A stretch of DNA of 64,000 nt from a candidate division WOR-3 bacterium (GTDB lineage Bacteria > Hydrothermota > UBA3072 > B12-G15), in contig CBFGJG010000004.1 of the NCBI GenBank assembly GCA_965649055.1, forward strand, positions 7,654-71,653, given 5' to 3'. Each line of letters opens with the position of its first letter. Positions within the stretch are counted from its first letter, which is position 1. The notes under the pieces are model-generated. The model worked only from the letters and a program-made list of their open reading frames with translations, made no database searches and was not told the DNA's origin. Made by a program: the position numbers and the translations under genes. Below are positions 13,206-62,362 of this stretch, piece after piece.

Positions 13206-13234
13206 TTGACAAAAATTTTTTTAACTTTACAATA
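13206..13234 (+). promoter_or_regulatory. Near-consensus sigma70 promoter for the C25 propeptide/peptidase genes
   Basis: TTGACA at 13206-13211, a 16-17 nt spacer, then TACAAT/ACAATA. An AGGAGG RBS sits 7 nt before the ATG at 13256. Confidence 0.5.
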
Positions 13235-13255
13235 ATAAATAAACAGGAGGTATTT

Positions 13256-13843: not shown

Positions 13844-13845
13844 GG

Positions 13846-39329: not shown

Positions 39330-40797
39330 AAATTTCTCCCGGTATCTTAAAAATAATATGGAATCCTATTTTATCATTTTTAGCCCAGATTTTACCATTA
39401 TGTGCTTCTATAATACTCTTACATATTGAAAGTCCGAGACCCATTCCACCATATTTTCTGCTTGAATCAACATCAATCTGGTAAAATGGTTCAAATATCA
39501 TACTGAGTTTTTTTTCTGGTATTTTTTCGCTATTGTTGTAAAAATCAAATAAAACAAATTCTCTGCCATTCTCATTCAATAATGAGTTATTAATCTTAAT
39601 AAACCCATTTTCAGGTGTGAATTTTGAAGCGTTAAGGAGTATATTTTCGAAGACATTCTTTATTTTTTCTTTATCAACTATACAATCTTTTACTTCAAGA
39701 TTAATCTCTGTTTTTATATTTTTATTTTCAAGATATGGTGAAAAATCCTGCAATGTATCTTTAATTATCTTTTCAATATTTGTTTTTTCAGGTTCTATTT
39801 TTACACCTTCAAGAAGGTATTGGGAGATTTGTAATAAGGAATGTATGTCTTTATTCAGTCTTTCAAGGTTTCTTTTTATAATCTCAAGACTTTTCCTCTG
39901 CTTTTCATTGGGTTCTCCAAGTTTACCCTTCAAAAGGTAATCAACATAACCTAAGGATGCAGTTAAAGGCGTTCTCAATTCGTGGGAAATATTCGCAATC
40001 ATCTGTGTCTTTTGCTTATCCCTTTCTTTCAGCTCGTTTACTAAGTTTTTTAAATCCATAATATTTATTCTTATCCTTTCAGACATAAAATTAAAAGTAT
40101 CGGCTAATTCCTGGAATTCATCATTTGTCTTTATCTTTATAACCCTGGAAAAATCACCTTTTGCTATTTCTTTAGCAGCGTTTTCAAGAATTGAAATATT
40201 AGAGGTTATAAGACCTGAGAGGAATATAGAGATTATTGCGCTTAGTATTAATATAATGAATAGGATTGTGGAAGAAATTTTTATAATGTTACTGATTTCT
40301 TTCTTTAACCTGTCATATGAGAAATAATAAACAATAGAAAATCTATGAACACCAAATCCATCAATATAAGGGTATATTATTCTAATATCTGAACTTTTTA
40401 ATGTTTTAGGTTCAAGCGATTTTAAGTTGTCTAAAACAAACTTATCGTCAGTATATCTTATTTTCTGGTTTGTTGGCATGCTTGACTCGGTAAAATCAGA
40501 ATCAAAGAGTATTTCACCATATAAATCAATAATCTGCAATTTTTTTAAGTCATTTGAAAGGGTAATATGTGTTATTATGAATTCTCTGAATTTGAAATAT
40601 AAACTATGGTAATATCTGATATACATATCGGCAAATTTATCATAAGTTATCCTTGAGAAAGTCTCAGCATTTTTATAAAATTCTTCCTTTAATTGTCTAT
40701 ATGATGAAAGTAAAAAAGATATATAAAGTATAACATATATAATTATCACTCCCAGAGTTATTATTATACTCACTTTGTATCTAAAAGGTATCTTCAT
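39301..40797 (-). CDS. Sensor histidine kinase (2 TM, ~150-aa periplasmic domain, HAMP, HisKA, HATPase_c)
   Basis: H-box 'ISHELRTPLTA', 'FEPFYQ' and G-box 'GGMGLGLSI'. Confidence 0.85.
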   Translation of the reverse strand: MKIPFRYKVSIIITLGVIIIYVILYISFLLSSYRQLKEEFYKNAETFSRITYDKFADMYIRYYHSLYFKFREFIITHITLSNDLKKLQIIDLYGEILFDSDFTESSMPTNQKIRYTDDKFVLDNLKSLEPKTLKSSDIRIIYPYIDGFGVHRFSIVYYFSYDRLKKEISNIIKISSTILFIILILSAIISIFLSGLITSNISILENAAKEIAKGDFSRVIKIKTNDEFQELADTFNFMSERIRINIMDLKNLVNELKERDKQKTQMIANISHELRTPLTASLGYVDYLLKGKLGEPNEKQRKSLEIIKRNLERLNKDIHSLLQISQYLLEGVKIEPEKTNIEKIIKDTLQDFSPYLENKNIKTEINLEVKDCIVDKEKIKNVFENILLNASKFTPENGFIKINNSLLNENGREFVLFDFYNNSEKIPEKKLSMIFEPFYQIDVDSSRKYGGMGLGLSICKSIIEAHNGKIWAKNDKIGFHIIFKIPGEIYEKKKNTNN

Positions 40798-42266
40798 TTT
40801 ATAACCTTTATTTCCTTTAACATTAATGTTTTATCCAGCCTTGGAGTCCATTTTATTCTTTTTGAAAGAACAAAAACATCCTTTTCCCAAACTATTGGTA
40901 TCTTTGGTATATCTTCAAGTATTAATCTCTGAACATATTGTAATCGTTCCAGAATGAGGTTTTCATCTGTTGTTCTTGAAAGTTCTTCCATAATACTATC
41001 AGCATATTTATTCGAATAACCAATATTATTCTGTGTCCCATATCCTTTTTCAGGTTCGTATGTGTGGAAAGAATTTGAAATAATGCTAATACCATCATAT
41101 GAAGTGGGAATCCTTGCAATAATATATAAATATGATTCTCTTTTTTCGACTTTTTCCCAGTACTTATCAGATGGGAGGGGATTCTTTTTTATTTTTAAAC
41201 CTATATTTTCAAGGTCTTCTATTATACCTTCTGCTATTGGTGCCCTTGCATACGAATAGTCAAATGTAAGTTCAGGAATATTGTTAATCTTAGATATAAT
41301 TTTTTTTGCTTCTTCAGGGTCGAATTTAATAGGTTCAATTGAAAAATCAAATCCGAAAACACCAGGAGTGAAAAATTGATTAGCAGGAGTTGCAAAACCA
41401 TTATATACAGTGCTGCATAATCTTTCCCTGTTTATACCTATATTTAATGCGTATCTAAAATCTTTCTTACTGAAAGGGTATTTTTTAAGGTTAAATTCAA
41501 GGAATCTTATTCCTATTCCCGGGGTTGTAACAACCTTTCCGTATTTTGAAAACTCATCAACCTGAGAAAGTGGAACATAAGATACAATATCAGCAATACC
41601 TTCTTTTAATAATCTTAACTTTTCATTGGAATCACGTATATAAAGATATTTTGCCCTTGAAACATCCGGTCTTTTATTCCAGTATTTATTATTCCTTATA
41701 AGTATGAGTTCTTTATCATCCATTTTTTCAAATCTGTAAGGGCCTGTTCCACAAGGGGTATTTTCCATTGGGTCATATCCTTCTGGAATTATAAATACGA
41801 TGGAAATATCAAATAAAAGCGTTGAGTATGGATATTTCGTCTTTATAACAATCTTATTTTCATTTATTTTATAAATTGTATCAACCCTATCTTTGTAAAT
41901 ATTAATCTCCGAGTTTGGAATTTTAAGAGGTCTTTTTAAAGAATAAATTACATCTTCAGGTTTCAATAATTTTCCATTATGAAAATATACGTTTTTTCTC
42001 AATGTGAATACCCAGGTCAAACTATCTTTCTTCTCCCAGTATTCTGCAAGGACACCTGTTATTTTCATATTTGCGTCAAATCCAACAATTGGTTCGTATA
42101 TATTCGAAAGAATTGAAATAACAGGTAGTTCACGGACTGCATGCGGTTCAAGGGTTGATGGCGGTGAATCTATAATGATAGTAATTTCATTTTTTTTATT
42201 GTTACATCCTGAAAAAATAAATATTATTAAAAGGATAAATAGATAATATCTCACAAATTCCTCCAT
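40794..42266 (-). CDS. Solute-binding protein family 5 (peptide/nickel-type) lipoprotein, probably an accessory sensor partner of the kinase
   Basis: The start is reassigned to Met 42266 (signal peptide + 'FSGC' lipobox); the ORF track extends to 42446. It has the SBP_bac_5 architecture and is translationally coupled to the HK, with TGA/ATG overlap at 40794-40797. Confidence 0.65.
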   Translation of the reverse strand: MEEFVRYYLFILLIIFIFSGCNNKKNEITIIIDSPPSTLEPHAVRELPVISILSNIYEPIVGFDANMKITGVLAEYWEKKDSLTWVFTLRKNVYFHNGKLLKPEDVIYSLKRPLKIPNSEINIYKDRVDTIYKINENKIVIKTKYPYSTLLFDISIVFIIPEGYDPMENTPCGTGPYRFEKMDDKELILIRNNKYWNKRPDVSRAKYLYIRDSNEKLRLLKEGIADIVSYVPLSQVDEFSKYGKVVTTPGIGIRFLEFNLKKYPFSKKDFRYALNIGINRERLCSTVYNGFATPANQFFTPGVFGFDFSIEPIKFDPEEAKKIISKINNIPELTFDYSYARAPIAEGIIEDLENIGLKIKKNPLPSDKYWEKVEKRESYLYIIARIPTSYDGISIISNSFHTYEPEKGYGTQNNIGYSNKYADSIMEELSRTTDENLILERLQYVQRLILEDIPKIPIVWEKDVFVLSKRIKWTPRLDKTLMLKEIKVIK

Positions 42267-42354
42267 TAATATTTTAATAATATTTTTTCTTATGTCAATA
42301 ATTTCCTTGAAAAATAAAAAATTTATCATATTATTTATAAAAAACGGAGGTTTT

Positions 42355-42582
42355 ATGAAAATTGCAATAGAGGATATTATAAAAAGAATAAACAGTAAAT
42401 ACAAGGCAACGGTTATTATAGCACTTGATGCAGAAAGATTGAACAAAATCAGGAAAGAAACAAATTTTATGAGCGAGGTTGAAACACCGGAAGAGAAAAC
42501 GATAATTCAGGCTATGAGAAGATTCATAGAAGGTAAGATACAATACAAATTTATTGAAGATGAACAGGATACTAAAAAATAA
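42355..42582 (+). CDS. Small hypothetical protein (75 aa)
   Basis: GGAGG RBS 7 nt upstream of ATG 42355. No recognisable family. Confidence 0.3.
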   Translation: MKIAIEDIIKRINSKYKATVIIALDAERLNKIRKETNFMSEVETPEEKTIIQAMRRFIEGKIQYKFIEDEQDTKK

Positions 42583-48218: not shown

Positions 48219-48685
48219 GGATAGGAATAGGATACGATATTCACAGACTTGTCGAAGGAAGAGAATTTGTTCTTGGTGGAATTATTATACCTTCAAGAAA
48301 AGGTATGCTTGGTCATTCTGATGGTGACCCGTTAATACATTCAATCATTGATGCAATACTTGGTGCAACTTCACTCGGTAATATTGGGATTTATTTCCCT
48401 GATACTGACCCTAAATATAAGAATATTAAAAGCACGGAGTTACTAAAAGAAACTATGAAAATTATAAAAGGATATAAAATTATAAATATTGATTCGGTTG
48501 TGATATGTGAAGAACCCAAACTAACAGATTTTGTGGAGAGGATGAAAGAGAATCTCGGAAAGATAATGGGTATTTCTAAAAATTTAATTTCTGTTAAACC
48601 TAAAAGAAAAGAAGGTCTTGATTCAACCGGAAGGAATGAATCAGTTGAAGTTATTTCTGTATGTCTTTTGGAGGAGGAAAAATGA
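48215..48685 (+). CDS. ispF: 2-C-methyl-D-erythritol 2,4-cyclodiphosphate synthase
   Basis: 'RIGIGYDIHRL', 'HSDGDPLIHS' and 'DSVVICEEPKL'. Confidence 0.92.
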   Translation: MRIGIGYDIHRLVEGREFVLGGIIIPSRKGMLGHSDGDPLIHSIIDAILGATSLGNIGIYFPDTDPKYKNIKSTELLKETMKIIKGYKIINIDSVVICEEPKLTDFVERMKENLGKIMGISKNLISVKPKRKEGLDSTGRNESVEVISVCLLEEEK

Positions 48686-51384
48686 TACTGTTATTTCTTT
48701 TGATGAATCCTTTACAGGATTTTAAAGTTGCTAAGGGATTGTTCGATGATGGGATGTATGAACTTGCAGAAAAGGAATTAAAAAATTTTATCGTTAACTA
48801 TAAAGATAGCGAATATGCAAAAGAAGCAGCATTGCTTTACTTGAAAGCACTTTACGCCCAGGAAAAGTATGAAACTATAATAGGTGAGAGTAAAAAACTA
48901 ATACTTGATTATCCGGAAAATAGGGAAGAAATCCTTATAATAAAGGGAAAAAGTGAGATTAAAATCAATAGATTTAGTGATGCAGAAAGGACATTCAACC
49001 AGTTACAGGACAGAAAGAAAAAATATTCAATGATCGGTGATATGTATTATGGAAAGGGTGATTATAAAAATGCAATCATATATTATCAGAAACTAAATGA
49101 TGATTATGGTAATTTTTCTATCGGGTGGTGCTACTATAAATTAAAAAGATGGGATGATGCAATGAGATATTTCAAAATGGTGAAAGAAAAAAAATATATT
49201 GAAGAGTCCGAATATATGATTTCCAAGATTAATATTATTAAAACAGGAAAGACTGATGAGTTAATAAAATTTTTAAAGAACTATCCAAAAAGTAAATTCA
49301 GAGCTAACGCACTTCTAACACTCGGAGAATATTACGAAGATAAGAACATACAGGAATCACAAAACTATTATATCAAAGTTGTTAATGAAAAACTTGAATA
49401 CTCAGATTATGCACTTTATAGAATAGCACTAAACTATTTTAAGAGTGAAAAATATGACTCTTCACTTTATTATTTTAATCTTGTAGAACCAACATCAAAG
49501 TATTTTGGAGATTGCCTGTATTATATTGCAAGAATAAATTCTTTAAAAGGTGAATATGATATTGCAATAAATTTATTCAAGCAGGTGGCTAATGATTATA
49601 AGGAATTAAGGGAACAGAGTATATTCAGGATTGCTGAAATATATAAAAAGAAAGGAGAAATAGATAAAGCTGTTGAAAATTTCAAGATTGTAACAGGTGA
49701 ATTAAAAACAGGTGCTAATATAGAAATAGGAAACATATTCCTGTCAAAAGGCCAGTTCGACAGTGCTTTATACTATTTTTCGTTAAGTGATGATGATAAG
49801 ATGGTTTTTTTAAAGAGTATAACATATTTTAAAATGGGAAATTACGATGAGGCTATTTCAAACTGCCAAAAAATAATAAAGAGATCAAAAGACACAGAAT
49901 TAGTTTTAAAGTCAAAACTCCTTCTTGGAGATACCTATCTTGAAAAGAAAAGTTATGATGAGGCAATCAATTTTTATACAGAGGTTTTAAATAATAATAT
50001 GAGAATCCTTTATCCTTCAGCACTTGAAGGATTGGGATGGGCTTATTACGGGAAGAAAGATTACAATGCTGCATTCAATTACCTTGACAGGTTATCAAAA
50101 GAATTCCCGGATTATCAGGGAAAAGGTAAAATATTTCTCACTATGGGCGATATTGCGTATTCAATGAAAGATTATGAAAGGGCTATTGAATATTACAGCA
50201 AAGTTAAAGGAGAGGAAGAACCTGAATCTTTTTATAAAAAAGGGCTTGTTCTCTTTGATAAAGGTGATTACACAGGTTCAATAAAAATATTGAATGAACT
50301 TAGGAAGAAGTTCCCATTATATGAAAAATCAGATGATGCATTATATCTTATTGCACTTGCTTCAAGGAAGGCAAACGATATTTACGCATCTATAAACAAT
50401 ATACGTGAATTATTAAAGATGTCTGTATCTAAAGAATTAAAGGCTAAAGCAACCCTACTTCTGGCAGACAACTTTTTTGACCAGGGAAGATTTGATTCTT
50501 CTCTATACTATTATGAAAGATATACTTATATTTTCACACAACCACAAAAAGAGATGGTTCCCGGAATAAGAGGTATAGTTTATTCTGTTTATAAATTGAG
50601 GGGAGAGAAAGAGTTTGAAAATATAATTAATGATTACATGAGAAGATATAAGGAAACAATAATATATCAGGATATCGCAGTTATGTTTGCAAGGCTCTAT
50701 CAAAATATTGGTAATTCAAAGAAGGCAATTGAGTTACTTGAAGGCATAAATACAATAGATTCGAAAATAGCACTTTTAGATGTATACAAGAAAACAGGAA
50801 ATCAAGAGAACCTGATAAAATTATTGAATGAACTTTTGACAGATGAAAGGACTAAGGAAAAGGCATCTTTTGAACTGGCAAGTTATTATTTTAAAAGAAA
50901 AGAATTTTCAAAAGCAATTGAATATTCAAAAAATATAAATAAACCTGATATTAACTATATCTATATTATGTCACTTATTGAGAATAAAAAGATAGAAGAA
51001 GCACTTGATGAACTTGAAAAAAGAAATACAGAGGATTATAAAGAACTCCTGAAAGGTATTATATTAATCAGAAAGGGGGACGAAACCGGTGTTCAATACC
51101 TTGATAATGCTATGAAGAATGAAAATACAGCACCAATTTCCATTTATGAAAAAGCAGTATATCTTATTGGTAAAAATAAAGACAACGATGCAAAAGAGAT
51201 ACTTTTGAAAATGAGATATCTATATCCTGAAAGTGAGTATTATTCACCATCTATGATTATACTGTCAAAGATATTGATAAAGGAAGGAAAAAAATCAGAA
51301 GCAAGGAAAATTCTTGAAGAAATTATAGCAAGAAAGGATGGATATGAAAAAGATGCAAAAGCTATTCTTGATAGTATTCGTTAG
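48661..51384 (+). CDS. Large tetratricopeptide-repeat protein (secreted/periplasmic?)
   Basis: Many W/Y-x-x-A-x-x-Y TPR-like repeats along its length. N-terminal hydrophobic segment. Confidence 0.7.
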   Translation: MSFGGGKMILLFLLMNPLQDFKVAKGLFDDGMYELAEKELKNFIVNYKDSEYAKEAALLYLKALYAQEKYETIIGESKKLILDYPENREEILIIKGKSEIKINRFSDAERTFNQLQDRKKKYSMIGDMYYGKGDYKNAIIYYQKLNDDYGNFSIGWCYYKLKRWDDAMRYFKMVKEKKYIEESEYMISKINIIKTGKTDELIKFLKNYPKSKFRANALLTLGEYYEDKNIQESQNYYIKVVNEKLEYSDYALYRIALNYFKSEKYDSSLYYFNLVEPTSKYFGDCLYYIARINSLKGEYDIAINLFKQVANDYKELREQSIFRIAEIYKKKGEIDKAVENFKIVTGELKTGANIEIGNIFLSKGQFDSALYYFSLSDDDKMVFLKSITYFKMGNYDEAISNCQKIIKRSKDTELVLKSKLLLGDTYLEKKSYDEAINFYTEVLNNNMRILYPSALEGLGWAYYGKKDYNAAFNYLDRLSKEFPDYQGKGKIFLTMGDIAYSMKDYERAIEYYSKVKGEEEPESFYKKGLVLFDKGDYTGSIKILNELRKKFPLYEKSDDALYLIALASRKANDIYASINNIRELLKMSVSKELKAKATLLLADNFFDQGRFDSSLYYYERYTYIFTQPQKEMVPGIRGIVYSVYKLRGEKEFENIINDYMRRYKETIIYQDIAVMFARLYQNIGNSKKAIELLEGINTIDSKIALLDVYKKTGNQENLIKLLNELLTDERTKEKASFELASYYFKRKEFSKAIEYSKNINKPDINYIYIMSLIENKKIEEALDELEKRNTEDYKELLKGIILIRKGDETGVQYLDNAMKNENTAPISIYEKAVYLIGKNKDNDAKEILLKMRYLYPESEYYSPSMIILSKILIKEGKKSEARKILEEIIARKDGYEKDAKAILDSIR

Positions 51385-52516
51385 CATTGTTGTCTTTGGC
51401 CAGTATCTTGATATACCTGATGTTACTGTTTATGGTGAAAAAGAGATAAACATTATTCCACCAAAGAAAAGCACACTTTTTTTTGTTGTAAAACCAGATT
51501 CTTTCGTCCTGAAAGATAAAGAAATAGAAATATCGGAAGGAAAGGATATAGAAAAATACGAGATGAAAAATTTTGGTTTTTACACAAAATTTTCCATTGG
51601 TTCTTTCTTTGATACTTCCCTTGTTTCTTTTGATGAAAGATTCAGTTTCTTTGCTCAAAAAGAGTATCTGCCTATACTTTTTGATGCCTTCATAAGAAGG
51701 GATTTTAAGTTTTATGATTATGATGTTTCAGGTAATCTTTCTTTCCATCCATACGATGGACATTCTTTTTTCGCGGAATACTCTAAGTTAAAATCAGATT
51801 CTATAGAAGAAATATTTGGTTTGAACTATCTTTTTTCAAATAGATTTGGAGATTTCAAGATAGGATTATTTACAGGAAATAGTGATATATACATTCTCTC
51901 TAACCTTAATTTTAGATTTAGAAATTATAACATTTCATTCAATATTTTCGACCTTTTCTTTCCTGATTCAAATTTTTTTCTTTCATTATCATACGATTTA
52001 AATGAATTTTCAAGAATAGGATTTTGTTTTAAAAAATATCCGTTACCGGTCTTTACATACATTATACCTGTAAATGATTTTTACCTAAAAGGAGAGTTTT
52101 CAAGTAGCAGGTATCCGTTTCTTCAAAATATTATTATATCGTATTTTGAACAATTTTTCATATGCGATAAATACAGAATTTCATTGGGGTATAAATTATT
52201 AAAATCTGGATATGCAGCCATTTTTATGAATGATAGTGTATTCCATGGATTTTCATTCTCAATATATAAGCCTTTTAACTTTAATATATATTATATATTT
52301 GATAATAAAATCTTCATAAATTCCGATATGGAATTAAATCTGATGGACAGATTCATTTTTACACTCCTTTTTTCATATCGAAATGGTGTAAATGTAAAGG
52401 CAGAGGCTGAATTCATTATAAATGAAATGCTCTCTCTTTTTATTGAATCCATATCATCATATGAAATTGACTCTTATAATATTAGAACAGGATTAAAAAT
52501 AAGGAAGGTTTTCTAA
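51338..52516 (+). CDS. Putative outer-membrane beta-barrel protein
   Basis: Signal peptide 'LFLIVFVSIVVFGQ', alternating amphipathic strands rich in F/Y/S, and a C-terminal '…KIRKVF' aromatic terminus. Confidence 0.45.
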   Translation: MDMKKMQKLFLIVFVSIVVFGQYLDIPDVTVYGEKEINIIPPKKSTLFFVVKPDSFVLKDKEIEISEGKDIEKYEMKNFGFYTKFSIGSFFDTSLVSFDERFSFFAQKEYLPILFDAFIRRDFKFYDYDVSGNLSFHPYDGHSFFAEYSKLKSDSIEEIFGLNYLFSNRFGDFKIGLFTGNSDIYILSNLNFRFRNYNISFNIFDLFFPDSNFFLSLSYDLNEFSRIGFCFKKYPLPVFTYIIPVNDFYLKGEFSSSRYPFLQNIIISYFEQFFICDKYRISLGYKLLKSGYAAIFMNDSVFHGFSFSIYKPFNFNIYYIFDNKIFINSDMELNLMDRFIFTLLFSYRNGVNVKAEAEFIINEMLSLFIESISSYEIDSYNIRTGLKIRKVF

Positions 52517-52517
52517 T

Positions 52518-53243
52518 ATGGAAAGAAGGATACTTTTATCAATTGCTGGTTTTGACCCGACAGGGCTTGCAGGTATATTAAGGGATATTCAGGTTTTTAA
52601 TTCTCTTGGTTTTCATGGTTGCGGTATGGTAACATCTTTAACCATTCAAAGTTCAAAAAAAGTATTCAAAAAAAAGGATATTCCACAAAAATATATATTT
52701 GAATCACTTTCAAAAATAAACCTTGATATATCCGGGATAAAAATAGGTATGTTAAATAATGAGAAGAGTGCTATGGAGGTCTTAAAATACATTGAACATT
52801 CAAGGATTAAAAATATAGTATTAGACCCTGTCCTTTTTTCAACTTCAGGTTACAGGCTGATAAACGAAAAGGGTATTAAATTTATGAAAGAAAGAATTTT
52901 TCCTTTTGTTTTATCTATTACCCCCAACCTTTTTGAGGCAAAAGCCCTTACCGGTGAGAAAAAAATAGAGAAGATTTTAGAAAAACTTAAAAGATTAATC
53001 AGTGGTTTTGTGATACTTAAAAATATCGATGGGGTCGATATATTTTTTGATGGTTCAAATCTTGTAGAGATAGAACCCTATCATAGGTTGAAAGATGCAA
53101 AGATGCATGGTTCTGGATGTGTTTTTTCTTCTGCATTGCTATCGTATCTTTCAAAAAATATGAATCATTTACAGGCTGCAAAAATGGCAAAGAAATATAC
53201 TGAAGAAGAAATAATTAGTTTTTTAAAGAAACCTGTTGACTAA
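52518..53243 (+). CDS. thiD: Hydroxymethylpyrimidine/phosphomethylpyrimidine kinase-family (ThiD/PdxK-like) protein
   Basis: 'SIAGFDPTGLAGILRDIQVFNSLG', 'ITPNLFEAKAL' and 'HGSGCVFSSAL'. Confidence 0.75.
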   Translation: MERRILLSIAGFDPTGLAGILRDIQVFNSLGFHGCGMVTSLTIQSSKKVFKKKDIPQKYIFESLSKINLDISGIKIGMLNNEKSAMEVLKYIEHSRIKNIVLDPVLFSTSGYRLINEKGIKFMKERIFPFVLSITPNLFEAKALTGEKKIEKILEKLKRLISGFVILKNIDGVDIFFDGSNLVEIEPYHRLKDAKMHGSGCVFSSALLSYLSKNMNHLQAAKMAKKYTEEEIISFLKKPVD

Positions 53244-53282
53244 AATTTATGTTGTTTTAATATATAAAAAAGAGAGGTAAAT

Positions 53283-53753
53283 ATGAAAATAGAGTTTATA
53301 AAAAAGCTTATTGAATTACTTGAAAATAGTAATATTAATGAGATAGAGATAAAGAGGTTCGGGACATCTCTAAGAATAGTAAAATTAAAAAATCAGATTA
53401 TCACAAATTTTCAGGAAACACCAAATCCGGTGAAGGTTCAGACACATCAGGTGAAAGAAAAGGAAGAAAAGGTAGAAACGAAGAAAGAAGAAGTAAAAGA
53501 GAAGAAAGATTATCTTATGATTAAATCTCCGATGGTTGGAACATTTTACAGGGCACCGGCACCAGATGCCCCACCTTTTGTTGAACTCGGTGATATTGTA
53601 AAACCAGGCCAGACTGTTTGTATTATTGAAGCTATGAAGATAATGAATGAGATAAAATCAGAATTTAGCGGTAAAATTGTTGAAATACCTGTTAAAAATG
53701 AACAACCGGTTGAATTTGGGCAGGTTTTATTCCTTCTTGAACCATTAAAATAG
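53283..53753 (+). CDS. accB: Acetyl-CoA carboxylase biotin carboxyl carrier protein
   Basis: Biotinyl-lysine motif '[10 protein letters not shown]' in the C-terminal lipoyl-like domain. Confidence 0.9.
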
Positions 53754-53761
53754 GAGGGAAA

Positions 53762-54856
53762 TTGGAGCTTAGACCCATTCTTGAAAAGATGGTAAAGATG
53801 GATGCTTCAGACCTGCATTTAAAAGTAGGTCTTCCACCTATTTTAAGGGTGCATGGAAGACTTACCCCTTTAAATATGCAGCCGCTTACCAATGATGACC
53901 TGAAGGAAGCTGCTGCTTCACTTATGACAAAACAACAACAGGAAGAATTTGTAAAGAGGAAGGAAGCTGATTTTGCTGTAGGATTGAAAGGTCTTGCAAG
54001 ATTCCGTGTGAACTGTTATGTCCAGAGGGGAAGTATTGCAATCGCGATGAGGACAATACCACACGTGATAAGGTCAATTGATGAGTTAAACCTTCCTCAA
54101 ATCCTGAAAGATATTTCCCTTTATCCAAGAGGGCTTATACTCGCAACGGGAACAACCGGTTCAGGTAAGTCAACAACACTTGCTGCAATGATTGAATACA
54201 TAAATCAGAATGTCTCGAAACATATCATAACAGTTGAGGACCCTATAGAGTATCTTTTCAGGGATAAAAAATCAGTGATTTCTCAAAGAGAGGTAGGAAC
54301 AGATACATATTCTTTTGCAGATTCACTGAGGTATATTTTAAGGCAGGACCCTGATGTTATAATGATAGGTGAGATAAGGGACGTTGATACAATGGATACT
54401 GCTCTAAAAGCAGCTGATACAGGCCATCTTGTTCTTTCAACATTACACACCTTAAATGCTGCTGAAACAATAAACAGGATTATAAGTTTTTATCCACCAC
54501 ACCAGCAACAACACATAAGGGTTTTACTTTCTGCAACACTTGTAGCTGTTGTATCATTGAGACTGCTCCCGCTTAAAGATAAAACTGGAATGATACCTGC
54601 AACAGAGATTCTTATCTCAACACCTACAATAAGGGAATATCTACTTGACCCTGTTAAAACATTGAAGATTCCACAGGCAATTACGGAAGGCAGTCAGTAT
54701 GGAATGCATTCATTTGACCAGTGTATAATGGATTATTATAAAAGGGATTTGATTGATTATGAAACAGCTATAAACAATTCGACTAATCCTGATGAATTCA
54801 AGATGAAGTTGAAAGGAATAGAAACATCCACTGAAGCAGGTTGGGGCGGGGCTTGA
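53762..54856 (+). CDS. pilT: Type IV pilus retraction ATPase PilT (TTG start with GGAGGG RBS)
   Basis: '[10 protein letters not shown]', 'ITVEDPIEY', '[16 protein letters not shown]' and '[10 protein letters not shown]'. Confidence 0.9.
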
Positions 54857-56196
54857 GTATAAAAAAATTACTTGTTGCAAACAGAGGTGAAATAGCGGTA
54901 AGAATTATAAGGGCTGCAAAAGAACTCGGAATAAAGACTGTTGCAGTATTTTCTGAAGGTGATGAGAATTCCCTCCATATATTCCTTGCAGATGAGTCCG
55001 TAAGAATAGGTCCAGCAAACCCAAAGAAAAGCTATCTTAATATACCAATGATAATAAGTGCAGCTGAGGTTTCAGGAGCTGATGCAATCCACCCGGGATA
55101 TGGTTTTCTTGCTGAAAATCCCGTTTTTGCAGATACATGCATTGATAGTGGTTTTATATTCGTTGGTCCTTCCCCTGATGCAATAAGAAAAATGGGTGAT
55201 AAATCAGAGGCAAAGAAGACAATGAAGCAAGCTGGTGTTCCTGTTGTCCCGGGGAGTGAAGAACCTTTAAAAAATGTTGAGGAGGCAATAGAGATTTCAA
55301 AAGAGATTGGTTTCCCTGTAATTCTAAAGGCAGTGAGCGGTGGTGGCGGAAAGGGTATGAGGGTTGCTTACAATGAAAAAGAACTTTATGCTAATTTTAG
55401 AATGGCTTCTTCAGAGGCAGAAGCAGCATTCGGTGACGGAAGAATATATATAGAGAAGTATATTGAGAACCCAAGACATATTGAGATTCAGGTCATGGGT
55501 GATATGATGGGTAATGTTGTTCATCTTGGAGAAAGAGAATGTTCAATCCAGAGAAAGCATCAAAAATTACTCGAAGAGGCACCTTCCACCATTGTGGATG
55601 AGAAAATGAGGGAAGAAATGGGAAGGATAGCTGTGAAAGGTGCAAAGAAAATAGGATATTATTCAGCAGGAACAATGGAATTTATTGTGGATAAGAATAA
55701 AAATTTCTATTTTATGGAAATGAACACAAGAATACAGGTTGAACATCCTGTTACTGAAATGGTGACAGGTTTTGATCTTGTAAAAGAGCAGATACTGGTT
55801 GCAATGGGAGAGAAACTGAGTTTTACTCAGAAGGATATAAGATTTAAAGGACATGCTATTGAGGCAAGGATAAATTCTGAAAGTCCCGAGAATGGTTTCA
55901 TACCCAGTGTCGGAAAGATAAATTCAATTCATATACCGGGTGGTAATGGTGTAAGGATTGACACACATCTTTATCATGGATACAATATTCCACCATATTA
56001 CGATTCCCTTATAATGAAGATAATTACACACGGAAGGGATAGGAATGAGGCGATTCTGAGGATGAAAAGGGTTCTTGATGAAATAATTATAGATGGTGTC
56101 CAGACAACGATAGGACTTCATAAAAAAATTCTTGAAAACGAAAACTTTCTAAAAGGTGAAATAAATACAAATTTTCTACAAACTATGGGTATATAA
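54841..56196 (+). CDS. accC: Acetyl-CoA carboxylase biotin carboxylase subunit
   Basis: '[17 protein letters not shown]', ATP-grasp 'GGGGKGMR' and '[14 protein letters not shown]'. Confidence 0.95.
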
Positions 56197-56792
56197 TGTC
56201 TATAATAAGATTTGGTTCAAGGGAAATAACCTGTAAGATAGTTTACTATGGACCCGGAAGGGCAGGAAAGACCACCAATCTCCAGTATCTTTATTCGAGG
56301 ATTCCAGCAACAAGAAGGAGCGAACTTGTATCCCTTGCAACGGAAACAGATAAAACGCTTTTTTTCGATTATATGCCAATAGATGTAGGCAATTACAGGG
56401 GTTTTACAACAAAATTTCAGCTTTATACAGTTCCGGGACAGGTTTTTTATGAGGATACGCGAAAACTTGTTCTAAAAGGAGCTGATGGTATCGTTTTTGT
56501 AGCAGATTCTCAAAGAGAAAGATTAGAAGATAATATTTTCAGTCTTGAGAACATGTTTCAAAATATGGAAGAAAATGGAATAGATATAAACGATACCCCT
56601 ATCGTTCTACAATATAACAAGAGGGACATGAACGATATTTGCACTATAGATGAGTTACAGGAAATATTAAATAAGAATTTCCTGTATGAATACTATGAGG
56701 CAATAGCAATAAAGGGAGTGGGTGTTCCTGAAACTTTTAAGGCAATAGGAACACTTGTTCTTAAAAATTTAAGGGAGAAATTAGGTCTATGA
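56196..56792 (+). CDS. mglA: Ras-like small GTPase MglA (mutual gliding-motility protein A family)
   Basis: 'CKIVYYGPGRAGKTTNLQYLY', 'LYTVPGQVFYEDTRKL' and 'GIVFVADSQRERL'. Almost co-linear with Myxococcus MglA hallmarks. Confidence 0.9.
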   Translation: MSIIRFGSREITCKIVYYGPGRAGKTTNLQYLYSRIPATRRSELVSLATETDKTLFFDYMPIDVGNYRGFTTKFQLYTVPGQVFYEDTRKLVLKGADGIVFVADSQRERLEDNIFSLENMFQNMEENGIDINDTPIVLQYNKRDMNDICTIDELQEILNKNFLYEYYEAIAIKGVGVPETFKAIGTLVLKNLREKLGL

Positions 56793-58519
56793 TTGAGGAT
56801 ACAGGACAATTTGATGATTTAAGGGTAGTTTTATCAAAACCCGAAAATTATGGTGTTGTTTATATTTACGGGGTAAACCAGGAAATTCTTTCGAATATAG
56901 AATATTTTATAAATTCTTCAAAGATAGTATTTTTAAAAATAAATGCAGAAAAATTAAAAGAAATTGACTTTTCGGGTATTGAATTACCAAAAGTTGTTCT
57001 GCTCCAGGATATTGAATATTTTGTAAGGAATCCTGAGGAGGAAAAATATTTTATCACATTAATTGAGAAATGCCTCAGGGAGAAAAAACAACTATTGATA
57101 ACAGGTATGTTTTCACTATCGGAGATAAAATTATCTGATAACGCAATGTTATATCTAAAACATATCTTCACGATTAAATTTGAACATAAAGACAAAAAAG
57201 GTGATCAGTTCACTGAAATTATAAAGACAATAGAACCTGATATACCTGAAATAAAACCCGAAAACAATATTGTTGAGGAATTGAGAGAAGAATATAAGGC
57301 AAAAATGTATATTTGGAAGATGAAGGGGTTTAACACATCAAGGATTGAAAGTGTTATTGATGGTAATATAGAGGCGATAACGAGTGAATTCATTTCTTTC
57401 ACAGCAGATATACAGAGGCTTATTGAACTGCAGAAAAGGTATGGAATATTGGAACTTCACATGATACCCGAGAAGGAAAAAATAGATATAGAGAAAAAAT
57501 TGTTTGACCCTGATAGCATATCAGAATTAGAGTACAAGATTTCTTTCTATGAGAAGAGGGCAACATTAAGAAACCAATTTAAATTAATGCTCTCCTGGGA
57601 TGAAAGAATGAATAGTGTTGAAGTTGATGAGAGCAATTCACAAATAGTTAGATTTATAACAAGCTTCTCACTTGAACCATATAAATATAAAGGTTTGAAC
57701 CTTATAAGGGGCGATAGAGGATTTGGTAAATCCACATACCTTAATATTACAGGAATACAATTATTTGAAAATTTTAGAAATCTTGTTATAGCATTTATAA
57801 CACCACATTCAATATTAAATATTGATGATTTTCTAAATGACCTTTCATATTTTGATATCGCACTTTTCGATGATATTGATAAGGTAATTTTTAGATATCA
57901 AAAGATTTTTTCAGATGATATACTCAGAATAATTTTTGACATGCCTGTCCTTGCTACTTTTACAAGCAAAGGATTTATCGATACTGTAAAACATTTTGAA
58001 ATAAAGAATAATTTTGAAATTAAAGAACCCGGGATTAAAATAAAAAGAAAGATGATAGAAAAAATAACAAACGATAGCAAGATTATTGAAATGGCAAACG
58101 AAGAAGTCCAGAAGATAAAAGGCGGTTTTTATGAAATAGAAAACCTGATATCAAATTTATATTACGAAAAGAAAGAAGAATTACCCTCAAAGGAAATAAT
58201 TGAAGAAAAAAAGGAAGTCGTTGAGATTAAGACAGAAGGTGAAGAAACGATAACAGAAATTCCAGAAAAAATAGATTTTAAAGAAGAAATCAAAGAAGAG
58301 ATAAAAGAAGAAATAGAAGAAAAATCGGAAGTTTCTGAAAAAATTATTGAAGAGAAGAAAGAAATTCAGGTTCCAAAGATCGAAAAGATAGAAGAAGAAT
58401 TACTCGAAGAAAAAGTAGCACCTGAAGAAACTAAAGAAGTTAAGAAAATAGAGTTTGTTAGCGAAGGTATAGTAATGGATATAGAAAATTATAGTTTAAG
58501 GATACAGAAGGAGCTGTAA
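56789..58519 (+). CDS. Protein with two tandem DnaA/Hda-like AAA+ modules (the first with a degenerate P-loop, the second with Walker A 'GDRGFGKST') and an E/K-rich repetitive C-terminus. Start overlaps the mglA stop (ATGA).
   Basis: The second module reads 'GDRGFGKSTYL…VIAFITPHS…DIALFDDIDKVIFRYQKIFSDDILRIIFDMPVLATFTS…NNFEIKEPGIKIKRKMIEKI'. It parallels DnaA domain III 'GGTGLGKTHLL…VVYMHSERF…[40 protein letters not shown]…GLTVAIEPPELETRVAIL'. The first module repeats the D-I-x-F…F…L…Q-L-L-I-T pattern without a Walker lysine. Confidence 0.5.
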   Translation: MIEDTGQFDDLRVVLSKPENYGVVYIYGVNQEILSNIEYFINSSKIVFLKINAEKLKEIDFSGIELPKVVLLQDIEYFVRNPEEEKYFITLIEKCLREKKQLLITGMFSLSEIKLSDNAMLYLKHIFTIKFEHKDKKGDQFTEIIKTIEPDIPEIKPENNIVEELREEYKAKMYIWKMKGFNTSRIESVIDGNIEAITSEFISFTADIQRLIELQKRYGILELHMIPEKEKIDIEKKLFDPDSISELEYKISFYEKRATLRNQFKLMLSWDERMNSVEVDESNSQIVRFITSFSLEPYKYKGLNLIRGDRGFGKSTYLNITGIQLFENFRNLVIAFITPHSILNIDDFLNDLSYFDIALFDDIDKVIFRYQKIFSDDILRIIFDMPVLATFTSKGFIDTVKHFEIKNNFEIKEPGIKIKRKMIEKITNDSKIIEMANEEVQKIKGGFYEIENLISNLYYEKKEELPSKEIIEEKKEVVEIKTEGEETITEIPEKIDFKEEIKEEIKEEIEEKSEVSEKIIEEKKEIQVPKIEKIEEELLEEKVAPEETKEVKKIEFVSEGIVMDIENYSLRIQKEL

Positions 58520-60117
58520 TGGCTATAAAGGGTTCATTAAAGGCAGCTTCTCTACCAGATGTGATACAGATGCTTTCTGTTGGAAGAAAATCAGGTGTTC
58601 TTAGTGTAACAAATGGAGAAATATTCATATTCATATATTTTGAAAAAGGTAAAATTACAGGTCTCGATTCAGTTAACAGACAATACAGGATAGGGGAATT
58701 GCTCATAAAGAATGGTAAGATAACAGAGGAACAGCTTGAAAGTGCACTATTAGTTCAGAAAGAAAACAAAGATAAATTACTTGGCGAGATATTACTTGAG
58801 ATGAAATTTATCGATGAGGATATATTAAAAAATGCAATAACAGAACAGGTTAAAGAAGGGCTTTACAGTGCATTTTCATGGGAAGATGGATATTTCAGCT
58901 TTGAACCAGGGGAAAGCAAGGTAAAAAAAGTAGGTAAAATCTCAATTGATGCACAGGACCTTTTACTTGAAGCAGCAAGGATAGTTGACGAGTTAAGTAT
59001 AATAGAATTACCTGGATATTCTGATATCCTTTTAAAGACAAAAACAGATACTGATGGTCTTAACGAAAAAGAGAAAGAGATTATAAATCTTATAGATGGG
59101 AAAAAGACTATGGAAAATATCCTTGATGAGACAAGAATTGATGAATTTGAAGCGATGAAGATTATTGGCAAATTATTACAAAAGGGATATATAAAAGGCT
59201 TGAAACAAACTTCTATACCGATAGAAAAGGCAATGGCGAAGATATCAGAGCATGAAAACCTTGGTATAGCATTTTTATATATGGAGATGTTCACCGAGGC
59301 GGAAAGAGAGTTTAGAAGAATACTTGAGATTGATCCTTTAAATGTTAAGGCAAAATTCTTCATAAGTATAATAAAATTTTTCAAAAATGATATTGATTCT
59401 GCTATTAGTCTTACTAAAGAGATAATAAATATGAACAATTTTTATCCATCTGTTTATGCAAATCTTTCTGTTTTTTATGAAAAGAAAGGCGAACTTGATG
59501 AAGCATTAAATATTATTGATGAAGGGCTTAAAAATTGGCCAGAAAATTCTAAGTTATTATTAAATAAGTTAATTATAAAAATAAAGAAAAACGAGATTGA
59601 GAATTTAAAAGAGATATTTGAGAAAATAAAAGAAACGGAGATAAACAATCCTGTTTTCTATTTTTATTACGGAATATATGAATGGAAGAATAAAAATTTG
59701 AATAATGCAATAAATATAATGCTTGAAGGTCTCAAGATTAATCCACAATTTCCCGAATATTACAATAATCTCGGCAGGTTCTACGAAGAAAGTGAAGAAT
59801 ACGAAAAGGCTGAAGCAATGTTTAAAAAGGCAATAGAAATAAAAAGTGATTACATCCCCGCAATTAAGAATATAGGTGATTTTTACTATAAAAATGGATA
59901 CTATTCACTTGCAAATGAGCAGTATGAGAAATTGACCAGTCTAAACTACAGTGATGCAGAGGTTTACTTTAAGATGGGAAACATTGCTCTTAAGAAGGGC
60001 GATTTCCACGATGCATATAAATTATGGAGTGAAGGATTAAATGTTGAACCTGATAATGAACTTTTGAAAAGGAATATAGAAATTCTTAAGAAAGATTATG
60101 GATTTGGAACTATATAG
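58519..60117 (+). CDS. DUF4388-like N-terminal domain + TPR-repeat protein
   Basis: 'SLPDVIQMLSVGRKSGVLSV…IYFEKGKI' fits the DUF4388 pattern. The C-terminal two-thirds consists of TPR-like repeats. Confidence 0.5.
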   Translation: MAIKGSLKAASLPDVIQMLSVGRKSGVLSVTNGEIFIFIYFEKGKITGLDSVNRQYRIGELLIKNGKITEEQLESALLVQKENKDKLLGEILLEMKFIDEDILKNAITEQVKEGLYSAFSWEDGYFSFEPGESKVKKVGKISIDAQDLLLEAARIVDELSIIELPGYSDILLKTKTDTDGLNEKEKEIINLIDGKKTMENILDETRIDEFEAMKIIGKLLQKGYIKGLKQTSIPIEKAMAKISEHENLGIAFLYMEMFTEAEREFRRILEIDPLNVKAKFFISIIKFFKNDIDSAISLTKEIINMNNFYPSVYANLSVFYEKKGELDEALNIIDEGLKNWPENSKLLLNKLIIKIKKNEIENLKEIFEKIKETEINNPVFYFYYGIYEWKNKNLNNAINIMLEGLKINPQFPEYYNNLGRFYEESEEYEKAEAMFKKAIEIKSDYIPAIKNIGDFYYKNGYYSLANEQYEKLTSLNYSDAEVYFKMGNIALKKGDFHDAYKLWSEGLNVEPDNELLKRNIEILKKDYGFGTI

Positions 60118-60868
60118 TCTTATGAAAACTATAAAAAATTTACTGGATTTCGATCCTATGAATTATAAGGAAAAACCTTTTAAAAGAAGAATAAGGGTAA
60201 GAATGAGGGCACTTGGGTTTGAAACATACAAAGAGTACGAGGAATATCTTAAAAATAATATAGAAGAACAGATTAAACTTAAAGATACCCTTACCATTAA
60301 TGTTAGTAAATTTTTCAGAAACTTAGAGGTATTTGAGATTATAAAAGATGAAATTATACCTAAGATTAAAGAACCTGTAAGATGCTGGAGTGCTGGATGT
60401 TCTACAGGTGAAGAACCTTATACAATTGCTATAATACTTAAAGAACTTGGTAAAGAGGGAAGAATAATAGGAACAGATATAGATACAGACGCACTTAAAA
60501 AAGCGAGGGAAGGCGTATACACTATTTTTTCTATGGACGAGATACCATACCAGTATATTAAAAAATACTTCGATGAGAAAGATGGAAAATATATAATAAA
60601 AGATTTTATAAAAAATTATGTTACATTCCTTGAACTCGATTTTAAAGATATTGAAAAATTTACAATGAAATTTGATATTATTCTTTGCAGAAATGTTCTT
60701 ATATATCTTACAAAAGAATTTCAGGAAAAATTAATAACAAGATTCTATGAATTGCTTGATGAAGGTGGTTTTTTAATACTTGGTATGGCTGAGACACTTG
60801 GTATTGGTAAATATGAATATTTTTTACCTTATAAATTAAAAGAAAGGATTTACAGAAAAAATGGATAA
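60098..60868 (+). CDS. cheR: Chemotaxis protein methyltransferase CheR (start possibly at Met 60122)
   Basis: 'RIRVRMRALGFETYKEY', SAM-binding 'RCWSAGCSTGEEPYTIAI', and 'ILCRNVLIYL'. Confidence 0.85.
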   Translation: MDLELYSLMKTIKNLLDFDPMNYKEKPFKRRIRVRMRALGFETYKEYEEYLKNNIEEQIKLKDTLTINVSKFFRNLEVFEIIKDEIIPKIKEPVRCWSAGCSTGEEPYTIAIILKELGKEGRIIGTDIDTDALKKAREGVYTIFSMDEIPYQYIKKYFDEKDGKYIIKDFIKNYVTFLELDFKDIEKFTMKFDIILCRNVLIYLTKEFQEKLITRFYELLDEGGFLILGMAETLGIGKYEYFLPYKLKERIYRKNG

Positions 60869-61337
60869 GATATTTGTCAAGATAGCAGAGATGAAAGCAG
60901 GTAAAGCCCCGAGTGTAATTATAACAATGGGGCTTGGTTCATGTGTAGCAGTTTCTTTATATGACAGAGCAAATAAATTTGGAGGGTTGCTTCACTTTTT
61001 ACTACCGGAAAATCCTTCTAATGATTCAAATTATTTTAAATACGGGGATAGTGGCATAAAAGAGATGATAAAATATTTTAGAAATAATGGCTCAAAATTA
61101 GAAAATATAGAGGCAAAAATAGTGGGTGGTTCAATTATGTTCACTCAACTTCTAAAAAGCACAGAGAATGCAGTTGGACCAAGAAATGTTAAGATAGCAA
61201 AAGAAATTCTTGAAAAACATAATATAAGGATTGTGAGTGAAGATACTGGCGGTGATTACGGTAGAAGTGTGGAATTTTATCTTGAAACAGGAGAATTAAA
61301 AGTTAGCTCTTATAAAACAGGTATAAAGATTATATGA
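60861..61337 (+). CDS. cheD: Chemoreceptor glutamine deamidase CheD
   Basis: 'GLGSCVAVSLYD' catalytic Cys motif. Size 158 aa. Confidence 0.85.
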   Translation: MDKIFVKIAEMKAGKAPSVIITMGLGSCVAVSLYDRANKFGGLLHFLLPENPSNDSNYFKYGDSGIKEMIKYFRNNGSKLENIEAKIVGGSIMFTQLLKSTENAVGPRNVKIAKEILEKHNIRIVSEDTGGDYGRSVEFYLETGELKVSSYKTGIKII

Positions 61338-62362
61338 AAACAATAAAGGTCCTTATCGTTGACGATTCTTCTTTTATGAGAAAACTTTTAAGAGATATAC
61401 TTGAGGCACATCCTGAAATAAAGGTTGTAGGGATGGCTAAGAATGGGGAAGAGGCAATACAGTTAAACGAAACACTCGAACCCGATGTTATTACAATGGA
61501 TGTAGAAATGCCTGTTATGAACGGAATAGAGGCAGTCCAGAAGATTATGGAATCAAATCCAAAACCAATAATAATGTTAAGTGCACATACAAGAGAAAAT
61601 GCAAAGATAACAATTGAGGCACTTGAGAAAGGTGCGTTTGATTTTGTCCCCAAGCCTGGAGGTGAGGTTTCTACAAACCTTATAAACATAAGTGAAGAGA
61701 TTACCGAAAAGATAAAGGCAGCATACTATGCTAATCTTCCAGCTTTGAGGGAGTCAGTATATTTGTCAAAGATTGAAAAACCAAGGGTATCTTCATCCCA
61801 AAAAGTTGTTGTTATTGCAAGTTCAACAGGAGGACCAAAAGCTTTATCATACATAATACCTAAAATACCAAAGGATTTTAATTCACCTATTATAGTTGTT
61901 CAGCATATGCCAGAAGGATTCACATCTGCATTTGCAGAAAGGCTTAAAAGTATAAGTAAATTGAATGTGAAAGAAGCAGAAGATGGTGATACAATAAAAA
62001 GAGGGAACATATACATTGCACCTTCCGGTTTCCATACAATAATAAACGAAGAAGAAAAGATAGTTCTTACGAGGGATAAACCTATACATGGTGTGAGACC
62101 TGCAGCTGATAAAACCATGGTATCCGCTGCTAATGTTTTCTTAAATAATACAATCGGAGTTGTTCTCACCGGAATGGGTAAAGATGGCGCTGTTGGTGTA
62201 AAAAGGATTAAAGCAGTAGGTGGTAAAAATATAGCACAGGATGAAAAAACATCAATAATATATGGTATGCCAAAAGCAGCATATGAAACAGGATGCGTTG
62301 ATGAAGTGCTACCACTTGAGAAGATACCGGAGGGCTTGCTCAGGATGGTTTCAGATGATTAA
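61334..62362 (+). CDS. cheB: Protein-glutamate methylesterase CheB (receiver + methylesterase)
   Basis: Receiver 'KVLIVDDSSFMR…DVITMDVEMPVMNG'. Esterase 'IASSTGGP', 'VVQHMPEGFT' and 'GMGKDGA'. Confidence 0.9.
   Translation: MKTIKVLIVDDSSFMRKLLRDILEAHPEIKVVGMAKNGEEAIQLNETLEPDVITMDVEMPVMNGIEAVQKIMESNPKPIIMLSAHTRENAKITIEALEKGAFDFVPKPGGEVSTNLINISEEITEKIKAAYYANLPALRESVYLSKIEKPRVSSSQKVVVIASSTGGPKALSYIIPKIPKDFNSPIIVVQHMPEGFTSAFAERLKSISKLNVKEAEDGDTIKRGNIYIAPSGFHTIINEEEKIVLTRDKPIHGVRPAADKTMVSAANVFLNNTIGVVLTGMGKDGAVGVKRIKAVGGKNIAQDEKTSIIYGMPKAAYETGCVDEVLPLEKIPEGLLRMVSDD

Follow-up and report, generated by a model that had tools for sequence, protein, structure and literature searches.

A pilT gene between accB and accC in a candidate division WOR-3 bacterium and in several other bacterial phyla

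Genes and junctions of the accB-pilT-accC-mglA locus

The stretch of DNA analysed here (the window: 64,000 nt of contig CBFGJG010000004.1, assembly GCA_965649055.1, from a candidate division WOR-3 bacterium) contains a plus-strand gene run in which pilT, encoding an ATPase of the pilus retraction type, stands between accB and accC, two genes of acetyl-CoA carboxylase, with mglA directly downstream. An earlier reading of the bare sequence (hereafter the original prediction) had already named these four genes in this order. The listing of open reading frames (ORFs) bears out the order and coordinates, and curated family models together with PDB alignments show the four identities to be correct. 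accB (53283-53753, + strand) encodes a protein of 156 amino acids (aa) that matches the biotin carboxyl carrier protein (BCCP) model TIGR00531 at 154 bits (cut-off 115) over residues 1-153, as well as Pfam Biotin_lipoyl, and contains the biotinyl-lysine motif EAMKIMNEI. accC (54853-56196, + strand; 447 aa from TTG 54853, the longest ORF starting at TTG 54841) reaches 711 bits with TIGR00514 (cut-off 626.5), and Biotin_carb_N, CPSase_L_D2 and Biotin_carb_C were all found in its product. mglA (56196-56792, + strand; 198 aa) encodes a Ras-like polarity GTPase with structural matches to PDB 5ymx, 6hjh and 3t12 (E 2e-71 to 3e-64). It aligns end to end with Myxococcus xanthus MglA (5ymx; E 1.9e-71, residues 1-194), and with Thermus thermophilus MglA (3t12) at E 3e-64. 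Its LYTVPGQ holds the MglA-specific TVPGQ, with Thr for Asp in PM3 (TxxGQ) and the catalytic Gln present.

The pilT gene (53762-54856, + strand; 1095 nt, TTG start) encodes a PilT-family hexameric ATPase of 364 aa, a member of the acc-linked subfamily described below, whose residues 3-345 cover positions 2-343 of the PilT/PilU model TIGR01420 (457 bits; cut-off 319). Like the type IVa PilTs of solved structure (5fl3; Geobacter metallireducens PilT4, 6ojx; Pseudomonas aeruginosa, 3jvv; E 1e-110 to 1e-85), it is full-length and retains the ATPase motifs. The best match among solved chains is 5fl3_A, the pilus retraction protein PilT (E 1e-110), and in this alignment the Walker A (GTTGSGKST), Asp box, Walker B and His box are all intact. 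The AIRNLIRE motif, canonical in G. metallireducens PilT4, was not found, its site in the C-terminal domain being replaced; in this the window PilT is non-canonical like 5fl3, which has TPYVRELLKD. The window PilT may drive pilus retraction. It differs from the type IVa proteins in a G[IV]x4-8W tail, I205 and Y313, and whereas their genes stand alone or beside pilU, pilB or pilC, the window gene lies inside a likely lipid-synthesis operon. accC does not directly follow accB as it does in the classical accBC pair, pilT intervening here and in at least 64 other loci.

The accB-pilT junction is as first described, with a TAG stop, an 8-nt spacer (53754-53761, + strand; GAGGGAAA) and the TTG start of pilT; a GGAGGG ribosome-binding site includes the G of the stop codon. 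This gap was measured in ten other distinct acc-linked loci; seven of them fall within 8-18 nt, and the outlying values are 1 nt (L090, Hydrothermales), 41 nt (L012, Gemmatimonadota) and 79 nt (TA06). The 16-nt overlap of pilT with accC given by the original prediction holds for the longest ORF (TTG 54841) and not for the likely start at TTG 54853, which leaves a 4-nt TTGA. The shorter overlap is most likely the true one, because residue 7 of the longest ORF is where the match to the NCBIfam accC model starts, homologues of accC measure 445-447 aa, and in L089, a WOR-3 locus with 94 % PilT identity, the gene is called from the equivalent of TTG 54853. The 1-nt overlap of accC with mglA (TAATG) stands as predicted. 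Across 53 distinct loci the pilT-accC spacer is 10 nt or less in 30, with the genes overlapping in nine. Both pilT (53762) and accC (54853) have TTG starts in the window and in L089, and ATG at these places in more distant relatives.

A consensus scan placed a putative sigma-70-type promoter upstream of accB (53236-53263, + strand; -35 TTGACT, 16-nt spacer, -10 TAATAT), followed by the Shine-Dalgarno (SD) sequence AAGAGAGG and the accB ATG. This promoter-like site (16-17-nt spacer, TAATAT/TAAAAT) is conserved together with the AAGAGAGG SD in L089, L099 and L109. L001 has it too, with a different gene, on the opposite strand, ahead of it. No other conserved promoter-like element was found. As for separate promoters or terminators around pilT and mglA, which would speak against the co-transcription originally proposed, no conserved promoter and, at the junctions in the window, no terminator-like site came to light. 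One match of 11/12 within accC (55958-55986, 210 nt before mglA) was considered as an internal promoter and rejected, being absent even from the 94 % relative. Nor did any of the 13 pilT-accC spacers of at least 40 nt, among the 53 distinct loci, hold a perfect hairpin with a T-rich tail. Given the tight or overlapping junctions, the lack of a terminator-like site and the conserved promoter-like site before accB, the simplest reading of the sequence is that accB, pilT and accC, and in the window lineage mglA, are likely to be co-transcribed.

Distribution of the gene order and the acc-linked PilT subfamily

Gene neighbourhoods were compared for homologues picked along falling PilT identity. 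The nearest homologues (64-94 % identity) come from metagenome-assembled genomes (MAGs) labelled candidate division WOR-3, a phylum now named Caldifarciminota at NCBI. In the closest of them (L089, PilT 94 %) the order from radA to cheB is that of the window, and in L001 (80 %) accB-pilT-accC is followed by a thiE-like ORF and mglA. L002 and L003 (70 %) have accB-pilT-accC without mglA and then AAA-PATAN-cheR-cheD, and L004 and L005 (65 %; L005 being a closed chromosome, CP070802, 2.37 Mb) have the trio without the mglA block, so that within WOR-3 the trio persists while the flanking genes vary between lineages. Elsewhere we found efp-accB-pilT-accC followed by a PAS kinase, a sigma-54 regulator and pilins in TA06 (L006, 66 %), pilT-accC without accB in Edwardsbacteria (L007, 67 %), pepP-efp-accB-pilT-nuoE-nuoF without accC in Hydrothermales (L090, 65 %), and pilT-DUF2273-mglA-AAA-PATAN-cheR-cheD-cheB without acc genes in a locus that was not placed (L008, 65 %). 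Gemmatimonadota (L009-L012, L091) carry aroQ-pepP-accB-pilT-accC, and one long contig of this phylum reads aroQ-pepP-accB-pilT-accC-ftsK.

A scan of species-representative genomes with the window PilT, which served as outgroup control, returned 80 loci from many phyla, none of them WOR-3; it was dominated by generic PilT motifs (QDPDVIMI), and the loci were classed by tblastn with the window proteins. The four nearest to the window PilT (52-56 % identity) are all from Gemmatimonadota and show accB-pilT-accC or the part of it that their contig allows. No acc gene lies within 8 kb of the other 76 (50 % identity or less, Gemmatimonadaceae PilT paralogues included). A search with a Gemmatimonadota PilT yielded only Gemmatimonadota at 81 % identity or more, and no further phyla.

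To these we added a junction pattern, made up of the accB C-terminus (MKxMNE...PVE), a gap of 85-115 nt and a generic PilT N-terminal motif (DxHL...PP), which recognised every compact junction already known and was run over a metagenome collection. Covering compact junctions only, it passes over the geometry of the TA06 and Gemmatimonas type (150-180 nt). At least 120 metagenome contigs were recovered, in 116 of which accB-pilT was confirmed by tblastn, the DNA of the other four ending too early. accC comes next in 64 of the 73 listed contigs (88 %) with at least 400 nt past pilT. Directly upstream of accB, among the contigs listed, stand efp (26), aroQ (16) or pepP (6; 48 in total), and the GC content of the loci listed spans 0.29-0.72. 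Exact-sequence look-ups of cluster representatives led to Gemmatimonadota, Fibrobacterota, TA06 (strain DG_24) and Candidatus Krumholzibacteria. At NCBI each of these four, like WOR-3 and Edwardsbacteria, is a phylum or candidate phylum of its own, and the 'FCB group' formally takes in only Gemmatimonadota and Fibrobacterota of them. accB-pilT-accC is thus common to at least six phylum-rank lineages, to Edwardsbacteria in part. The view that pilT had recently been spliced into the accBC pair does not survive this comparison, since the loci of relatives show an old sandwich, spread over at least six such lineages and built around a dedicated PilT subfamily.

That subfamily was delimited with a neighbour-joining tree of 157 PilTs (single high-scoring segment pairs, unrooted split test). 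The 76 acc-linked PilTs, L008 included, separate from 81 unlinked ones as an exact bipartition with a bootstrap of 83/100, and a split with a Jaccard index of at least 0.97 recurs in 93/100 replicates. As many as 60 of the 76 had come in through the junction pattern and not through PilT similarity, so their place in the clade was arrived at independently. The C-terminal tail G[IV]x4-8W occurs in 66/74 linked and 2/81 unlinked PilTs, and I205 and Y313 are near-invariant in the clade. L008 and the nearest outgroup, the sister L013, have the tail as well but no acc neighbours, so that the tail as such is not an acc-related adaptation. Some genomes with an acc-linked PilT have further PilT paralogues, so this PilT is not necessarily the sole retraction ATPase of its cell. 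Pilus genes near the locus in relatives comprise the pilins near L006 and further PilT paralogues near L004/L005. At L004/L005 (CP070802; 1-1195, 9331-10643) two more PilT-family paralogues lie about 5 kb upstream of accB. The same locus carries two Roadblock/LC7 genes, one of them TPR-fused, on the opposite strand just past accC, and no mglA.

In Gemmatimonadaceae the pilT-accC spacer (L010 9120-9275; L011 1293-1447) is 155-156 nt long and kept between species. It folds at -75 kcal/mol in L010 and -66 kcal/mol in L011, with several GC-rich hairpins, and could be an attenuator or another cis-regulatory RNA acting on accC. Rfam gave no match in the window, nor in the long pilT-accC spacers of L006, L007 and L010.

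The mglA block and the surroundings of the locus

The original prediction had both pilT and mglA spliced into the operon. The loci point to two separate events, with mglA standing after accC in one WOR-3 subclade only: among the matches listed, 35 metagenome loci are informative and 14 of these have it there, each with a PilT at least 60 % identical to that of the window. The accC-mglA gap is -1/0 nt in the window and L089, 5-18 nt in ten loci and about 590 nt, filled or probably filled by a thiE-like ORF, in five.

Downstream of mglA follows a 576-aa P-loop protein (56789-58519, + strand), a diverged member of a tandem DnaA-type AAA+ family. Although the window protein itself has no Pfam match, its homologues in L001, L002 and L008 match Bac_DnaA, the L008 protein with tandem DnaA-type AAA+ domains (Pfam E 3e-39). 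Family members are 546-642 aa long, the window protein is 29-54 % identical (tblastn) to its homologues in the block, and the AAA+ gene always stands between mglA and the PATAN gene. The latter (58519-60117, + strand) encodes a PATAN (DUF4388)/TPR protein with PF14332 at E 1e-32 and C-terminal TPR repeats. Its PATAN domain is interrupted at residues 57-110 by an MshEN-type cyclic di-GMP (c-di-GMP) motif (NF053729, 54.5 bits; cut-off 38), which suggests a c-di-GMP input to the polarity module. The block is closed by cheR (60098-60868), cheD (60861-61337) and cheB (61334-62362; all + strand), recognised by Pfam CheR, CheD, and CheB_methylest with Response_reg, and these three keep the same order in L008, L089, L104, L130 and L145. 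The whole block mglA-AAA+-PATAN/TPR-cheR-cheD-cheB travels with or without acc genes (L008 7289-11410; L104, L130, L145), and in L008 it adjoins pilT with no acc gene at all.

MglA resembles the MglA/MglB module of M. xanthus and T. thermophilus in sequence (about 60 % identity to the M. xanthus protein) and in its pilus and chemosensory neighbours, and differs from it in two respects. The intrinsic Arg finger (M. xanthus R53, TETDRTLFFD) is a Lys in the window (TETDKTLFFD), a replacement shared only with L089 (9436-10032), Arg being found in 16 other homologues. The protein is also an 'orphan': no mglB/Roadblock gene was found within four genes of mglA or in the 64 kb (Robl_LC7 Pfam over ORFs of at least 120 aa, smaller ORFs being partly scanned), and tblastn of the window with WOR-3 Roadblock proteins gave TPR matches only. 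The Lys in place of the Arg finger, together with the lack of an mglB gene, suggests an altered GTPase cycling of MglA in the window lineage. Orphan MglAs without mglB made up 59 of 449 in a survey (PMC4316618), and MglA-PATAN neighbourhoods are known for some Group 1/5 MglAs (Wuichet and Sogaard-Andersen, 2014, citing Makarova et al., 2006; PMC4316618). The window mglA, two genes from a PATAN gene, resembles these; it departs from them in the tandem DnaA-like AAA+ gene that always lies between and in the attachment of the block to accC. In Synechocystis, PATAN response regulators interact with PilB1, the pilus extension motor (bioRxiv 10.1101/2021.06.11.447907); those regulators carry a receiver domain, whereas the window PATAN is fused to TPR and has the MshEN-type c-di-GMP motif. 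The known neighbourhoods and the PilB1 interaction both fit a pilus-polarity role for the block.

All these genes belong to a one-strand string of about 21 kb (42554-63915, to the window end) with almost no intergenic DNA and many overlaps of 1 nt, 4 nt or more. On the + strand it comprises, in order, coaBC, udg, dnaB, an ABC ATPase gene, radA, an unknown ORF and ispF; then genes for a 907-aa TPR protein and a 392-aa unknown ORF, thiD, accB, pilT, accC and mglA; and finally those for the 576-aa P-loop protein and the PATAN/TPR protein, cheR, cheD, cheB, and genes for a TPR protein and an AAA_22 ATPase. Within the inspected stretch 48661-60868 only one gap is sizeable, the 39 nt between thiD and accB. 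Since gaps of a few bases and overlaps are usual along the whole string of unrelated housekeeping genes, the tight packing that had been read as a sign of a functional link is uninformative here. No other pilus gene was found in the 64-kb window (Pfam, tblastn), the rest of which is housekeeping, and no second pilT (tblastn and Pfam). The GC content at 54-56 kb is 0.384 against about 0.30 elsewhere, simply because pilT and accC encode the most conserved proteins of an AT-rich genome. Recent horizontal transfer was considered as a cause and rejected, since the genes take on the GC of their host across the range 0.29-0.72.

Thiamine-biosynthesis genes recur near the acc trio. thiD (52518-53243) immediately precedes accB in the window, L089, L099 and L109, and the accC-mglA gap of L001 holds a TMP-TENI (thiE-like) ORF (8512-9009), probably the same one that lies in the gaps of about 590 nt in L103, L121, L137 and L157. 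In the Edwardsbacteria locus (L007, 9711-11214) Thi4 and TMP-TENI genes lie downstream. A cluster with an EAL phosphodiesterase, a response regulator, a histidine kinase and a solute-binding protein is encoded nearby in the window on the minus strand (37676-42446). Two further features, a gingipain-like C25 peptidase with a propeptide ORF (13175-16719, + strand) and a PIF1-type helicase fused to a WYL domain (2156-3709, minus strand), are unrelated to the acc locus.

Origin of the arrangement and its possible meaning

The aroQ/pepP/efp-accB-accC neighbourhood is common in bacteria, for example in Bacillus subtilis, and the sandwich has an aroQ/pepP/efp setting, too, in TA06, in Hydrothermales, in Gemmatimonadota and on many metagenome contigs. 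Because both this context and the accB-accC adjacency are so widespread, we infer that pilT was inserted into an existing accBC pair. The window probably displays an old inherited operon architecture that goes back to an ancestor of several phyla, in which a paralogue of pilT came to lie between the two acc genes. A single insertion into the housekeeping string, in the ancestor of WOR-3/Caldifarciminota, TA06, Edwardsbacteria, Gemmatimonadota, Fibrobacterota and Krumholzibacteriota, would have been followed by vertical inheritance with a recognisable PilT subfamily and by occasional break-up. L008 would be one such case: it nests within the acc-linked clade and has kept DUF2273, the gene that follows accC in L007, which fits a secondary loss of accC.

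In the window, pilT would be transcribed from the conserved putative promoter ahead of accB, and its translation would start from a strong ribosome-binding site of its own, directly behind the accB stop. Translational coupling would join accC to pilT through the TTGA start/stop overlap and, in the window lineage, mglA to accC through TAATG. The arrangement resembles the accBC operon of the Escherichia coli/B. subtilis type in having accB first, accC second and a promoter, here a putative one, directly upstream, and differs from it in the 1.1-kb unrelated ATPase gene in between and in the splitting of the pair altogether in some lineages. The two E. coli genes are transcribed into a single mRNA, at a rate that follows growth and is autoregulated by AccB (PMC3896788). 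The synthesis of the pilus-retraction ATPase would then depend on a housekeeping transcript linked to growth and controlled by AccB, on which its gene rides as a passenger. Later, in the one WOR-3 subclade to which the window belongs, the polarity and chemosensory block (mglA, AAA+, PATAN/TPR, cheR, cheD, cheB) would have accreted downstream, beside the already trapped pilT, leaving accC stranded between pilT and its probable regulators; likely these regulators clustered next to a pilT that already sat in the acc operon.

Several observations weigh against an old co-transcribed operon or limit how far it can be pressed. Promoter-like sites number 76 in the sequence as against 78.6 in shuffled sequence, the consensus used may not be that of these phyla, and internal promoters may lie within coding sequence. 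Strongly structured spacers of 136-179 nt separate pilT from accC in TA06, Edwardsbacteria and Gemmatimonadaceae, where accC could therefore be under separate control. The tree is a neighbour-joining tree of a single protein, the taxon names are only as certain as the labels that submitters gave to their MAGs, and the junction scan, being conditioned on a compact accB-pilT junction, gives no unbiased frequency for that junction. Finally the linkage is dispensable: accB is missing upstream in Edwardsbacteria (L007), both acc genes in L008, and accC downstream in Hydrothermales and some Gemmatimonadota. The 'hard-wiring' of motility and polarity to membrane synthesis that was originally proposed has no direct support, and lineages that lost accB, accC or both from the locus do without the linkage.

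A looser adaptive linkage would tie the level or activity of this PilT subfamily to acetyl-CoA carboxylase, by an expression that depends on growth rate and on AccB autoregulation or by a physical contact of PilT with BCCP or biotin carboxylase, so that pilus retraction, and hence motility, adhesion or DNA uptake, follows lipid-synthesis capacity. The survival of the sandwich through phylum-level divergence despite shuffled flanks, the tight accB-pilT junction in nearly all lineages, the dedicated subfamily with its own conserved tail alongside other PilT paralogues and the growth-rate regulation of accBC transcription in E. coli (PMC3896788) would all agree with such a link, yet we consider it unlikely. 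No link between PilT and acetyl-CoA carboxylase was found in the literature, the tail occurs in L008 and L013 without acc neighbours and so is no acc-specific adaptation, and three kinds of break-up (L007, L008, L090) are tolerated, contrary to an obligatory coupling. Moreover, no adaptive value is needed to explain the conservation of a gene caught between two essential genes that are expressed together. That the acc-linked PilT is a metabolically gated pilus motor, expressed from the AccB/AccC arm of acetyl-CoA carboxylase and perhaps in physical contact with it, with the coupling of retraction to fatty-acid and membrane synthesis or growth throughout this group of phyla as the reason why the sandwich has survived since before they diverged, is a doubtful proposition.

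We think it quite improbable that the genes are adjacent but not co-expressed, with pilT and mglA on their own embedded promoters and the order kept by compaction and slow rearrangement only. The gap-free string of about 21 kb of unrelated genes, which makes overlaps the default in this genome, the strong SD of pilT itself, the 11/12 promoter match 210 nt before mglA and the long structured spacers ahead of accC in some phyla are what such a view would predict. That match, however, is not conserved even in the 94 % relative, the sole conserved promoter-like element found is the one upstream of accB, and terminator-like structures are lacking at the window junctions and in the 13 long spacers elsewhere; compaction, for its part, cannot explain the conservation of an order that high-GC, non-compact genomes share. 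That the assembly is chimeric, or that chance brought the genes together on this contig alone, is a view for which only the a priori oddity of the gene order would speak, and it can be dismissed, the same order being present on more than 100 independent contigs (JGI, ENA, NCBI, Logan), among them the closed 2.37-Mb WOR-3 chromosome CP070802.

The probable old operon has a parallel in the rpsU-dnaG-rpoD 'macromolecular synthesis' operon, in which genes of unrelated functions form one transcription unit whose co-transcription and internal promoters have been mapped. In both cases unrelated genes have been kept together over long evolutionary distances; there the single transcription unit is mapped, whereas for accB-pilT-accC it is predicted. 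No description of accB-pilT-accC was found in full-text literature searches (accB/accC with pilT, Gemmatimonas with pilT, WOR-3 with pili). A Francisella preprint that names pilT and AccB treats AccB as a pilus-independent released protein, the enrichment of which may reflect natural biotinylation, and is unrelated. While the protein families are known, the accB-pilT-accC architecture and the PilT subfamily therefore appear to be new.

The arrangement provides a gene-order marker for WOR-3, TA06, Gemmatimonadota, Fibrobacterota, Krumholzibacteriota and, in part, Edwardsbacteria, and may be of help where the position of a candidate phylum is poorly resolved. With it comes a PilT subfamily that is marked by a conserved tail containing Trp and of which no member has been studied. 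Either selection for coupling or merely the cost of rearrangement within a co-expressed essential pair keeps pilT in place, and the finding raises the question of whether these bacteria, most of them uncultured, couple pilus retraction to growth or to the synthesis of lipids, a question made experimentally accessible by cultured Gemmatimonas species, which should carry the arrangement.

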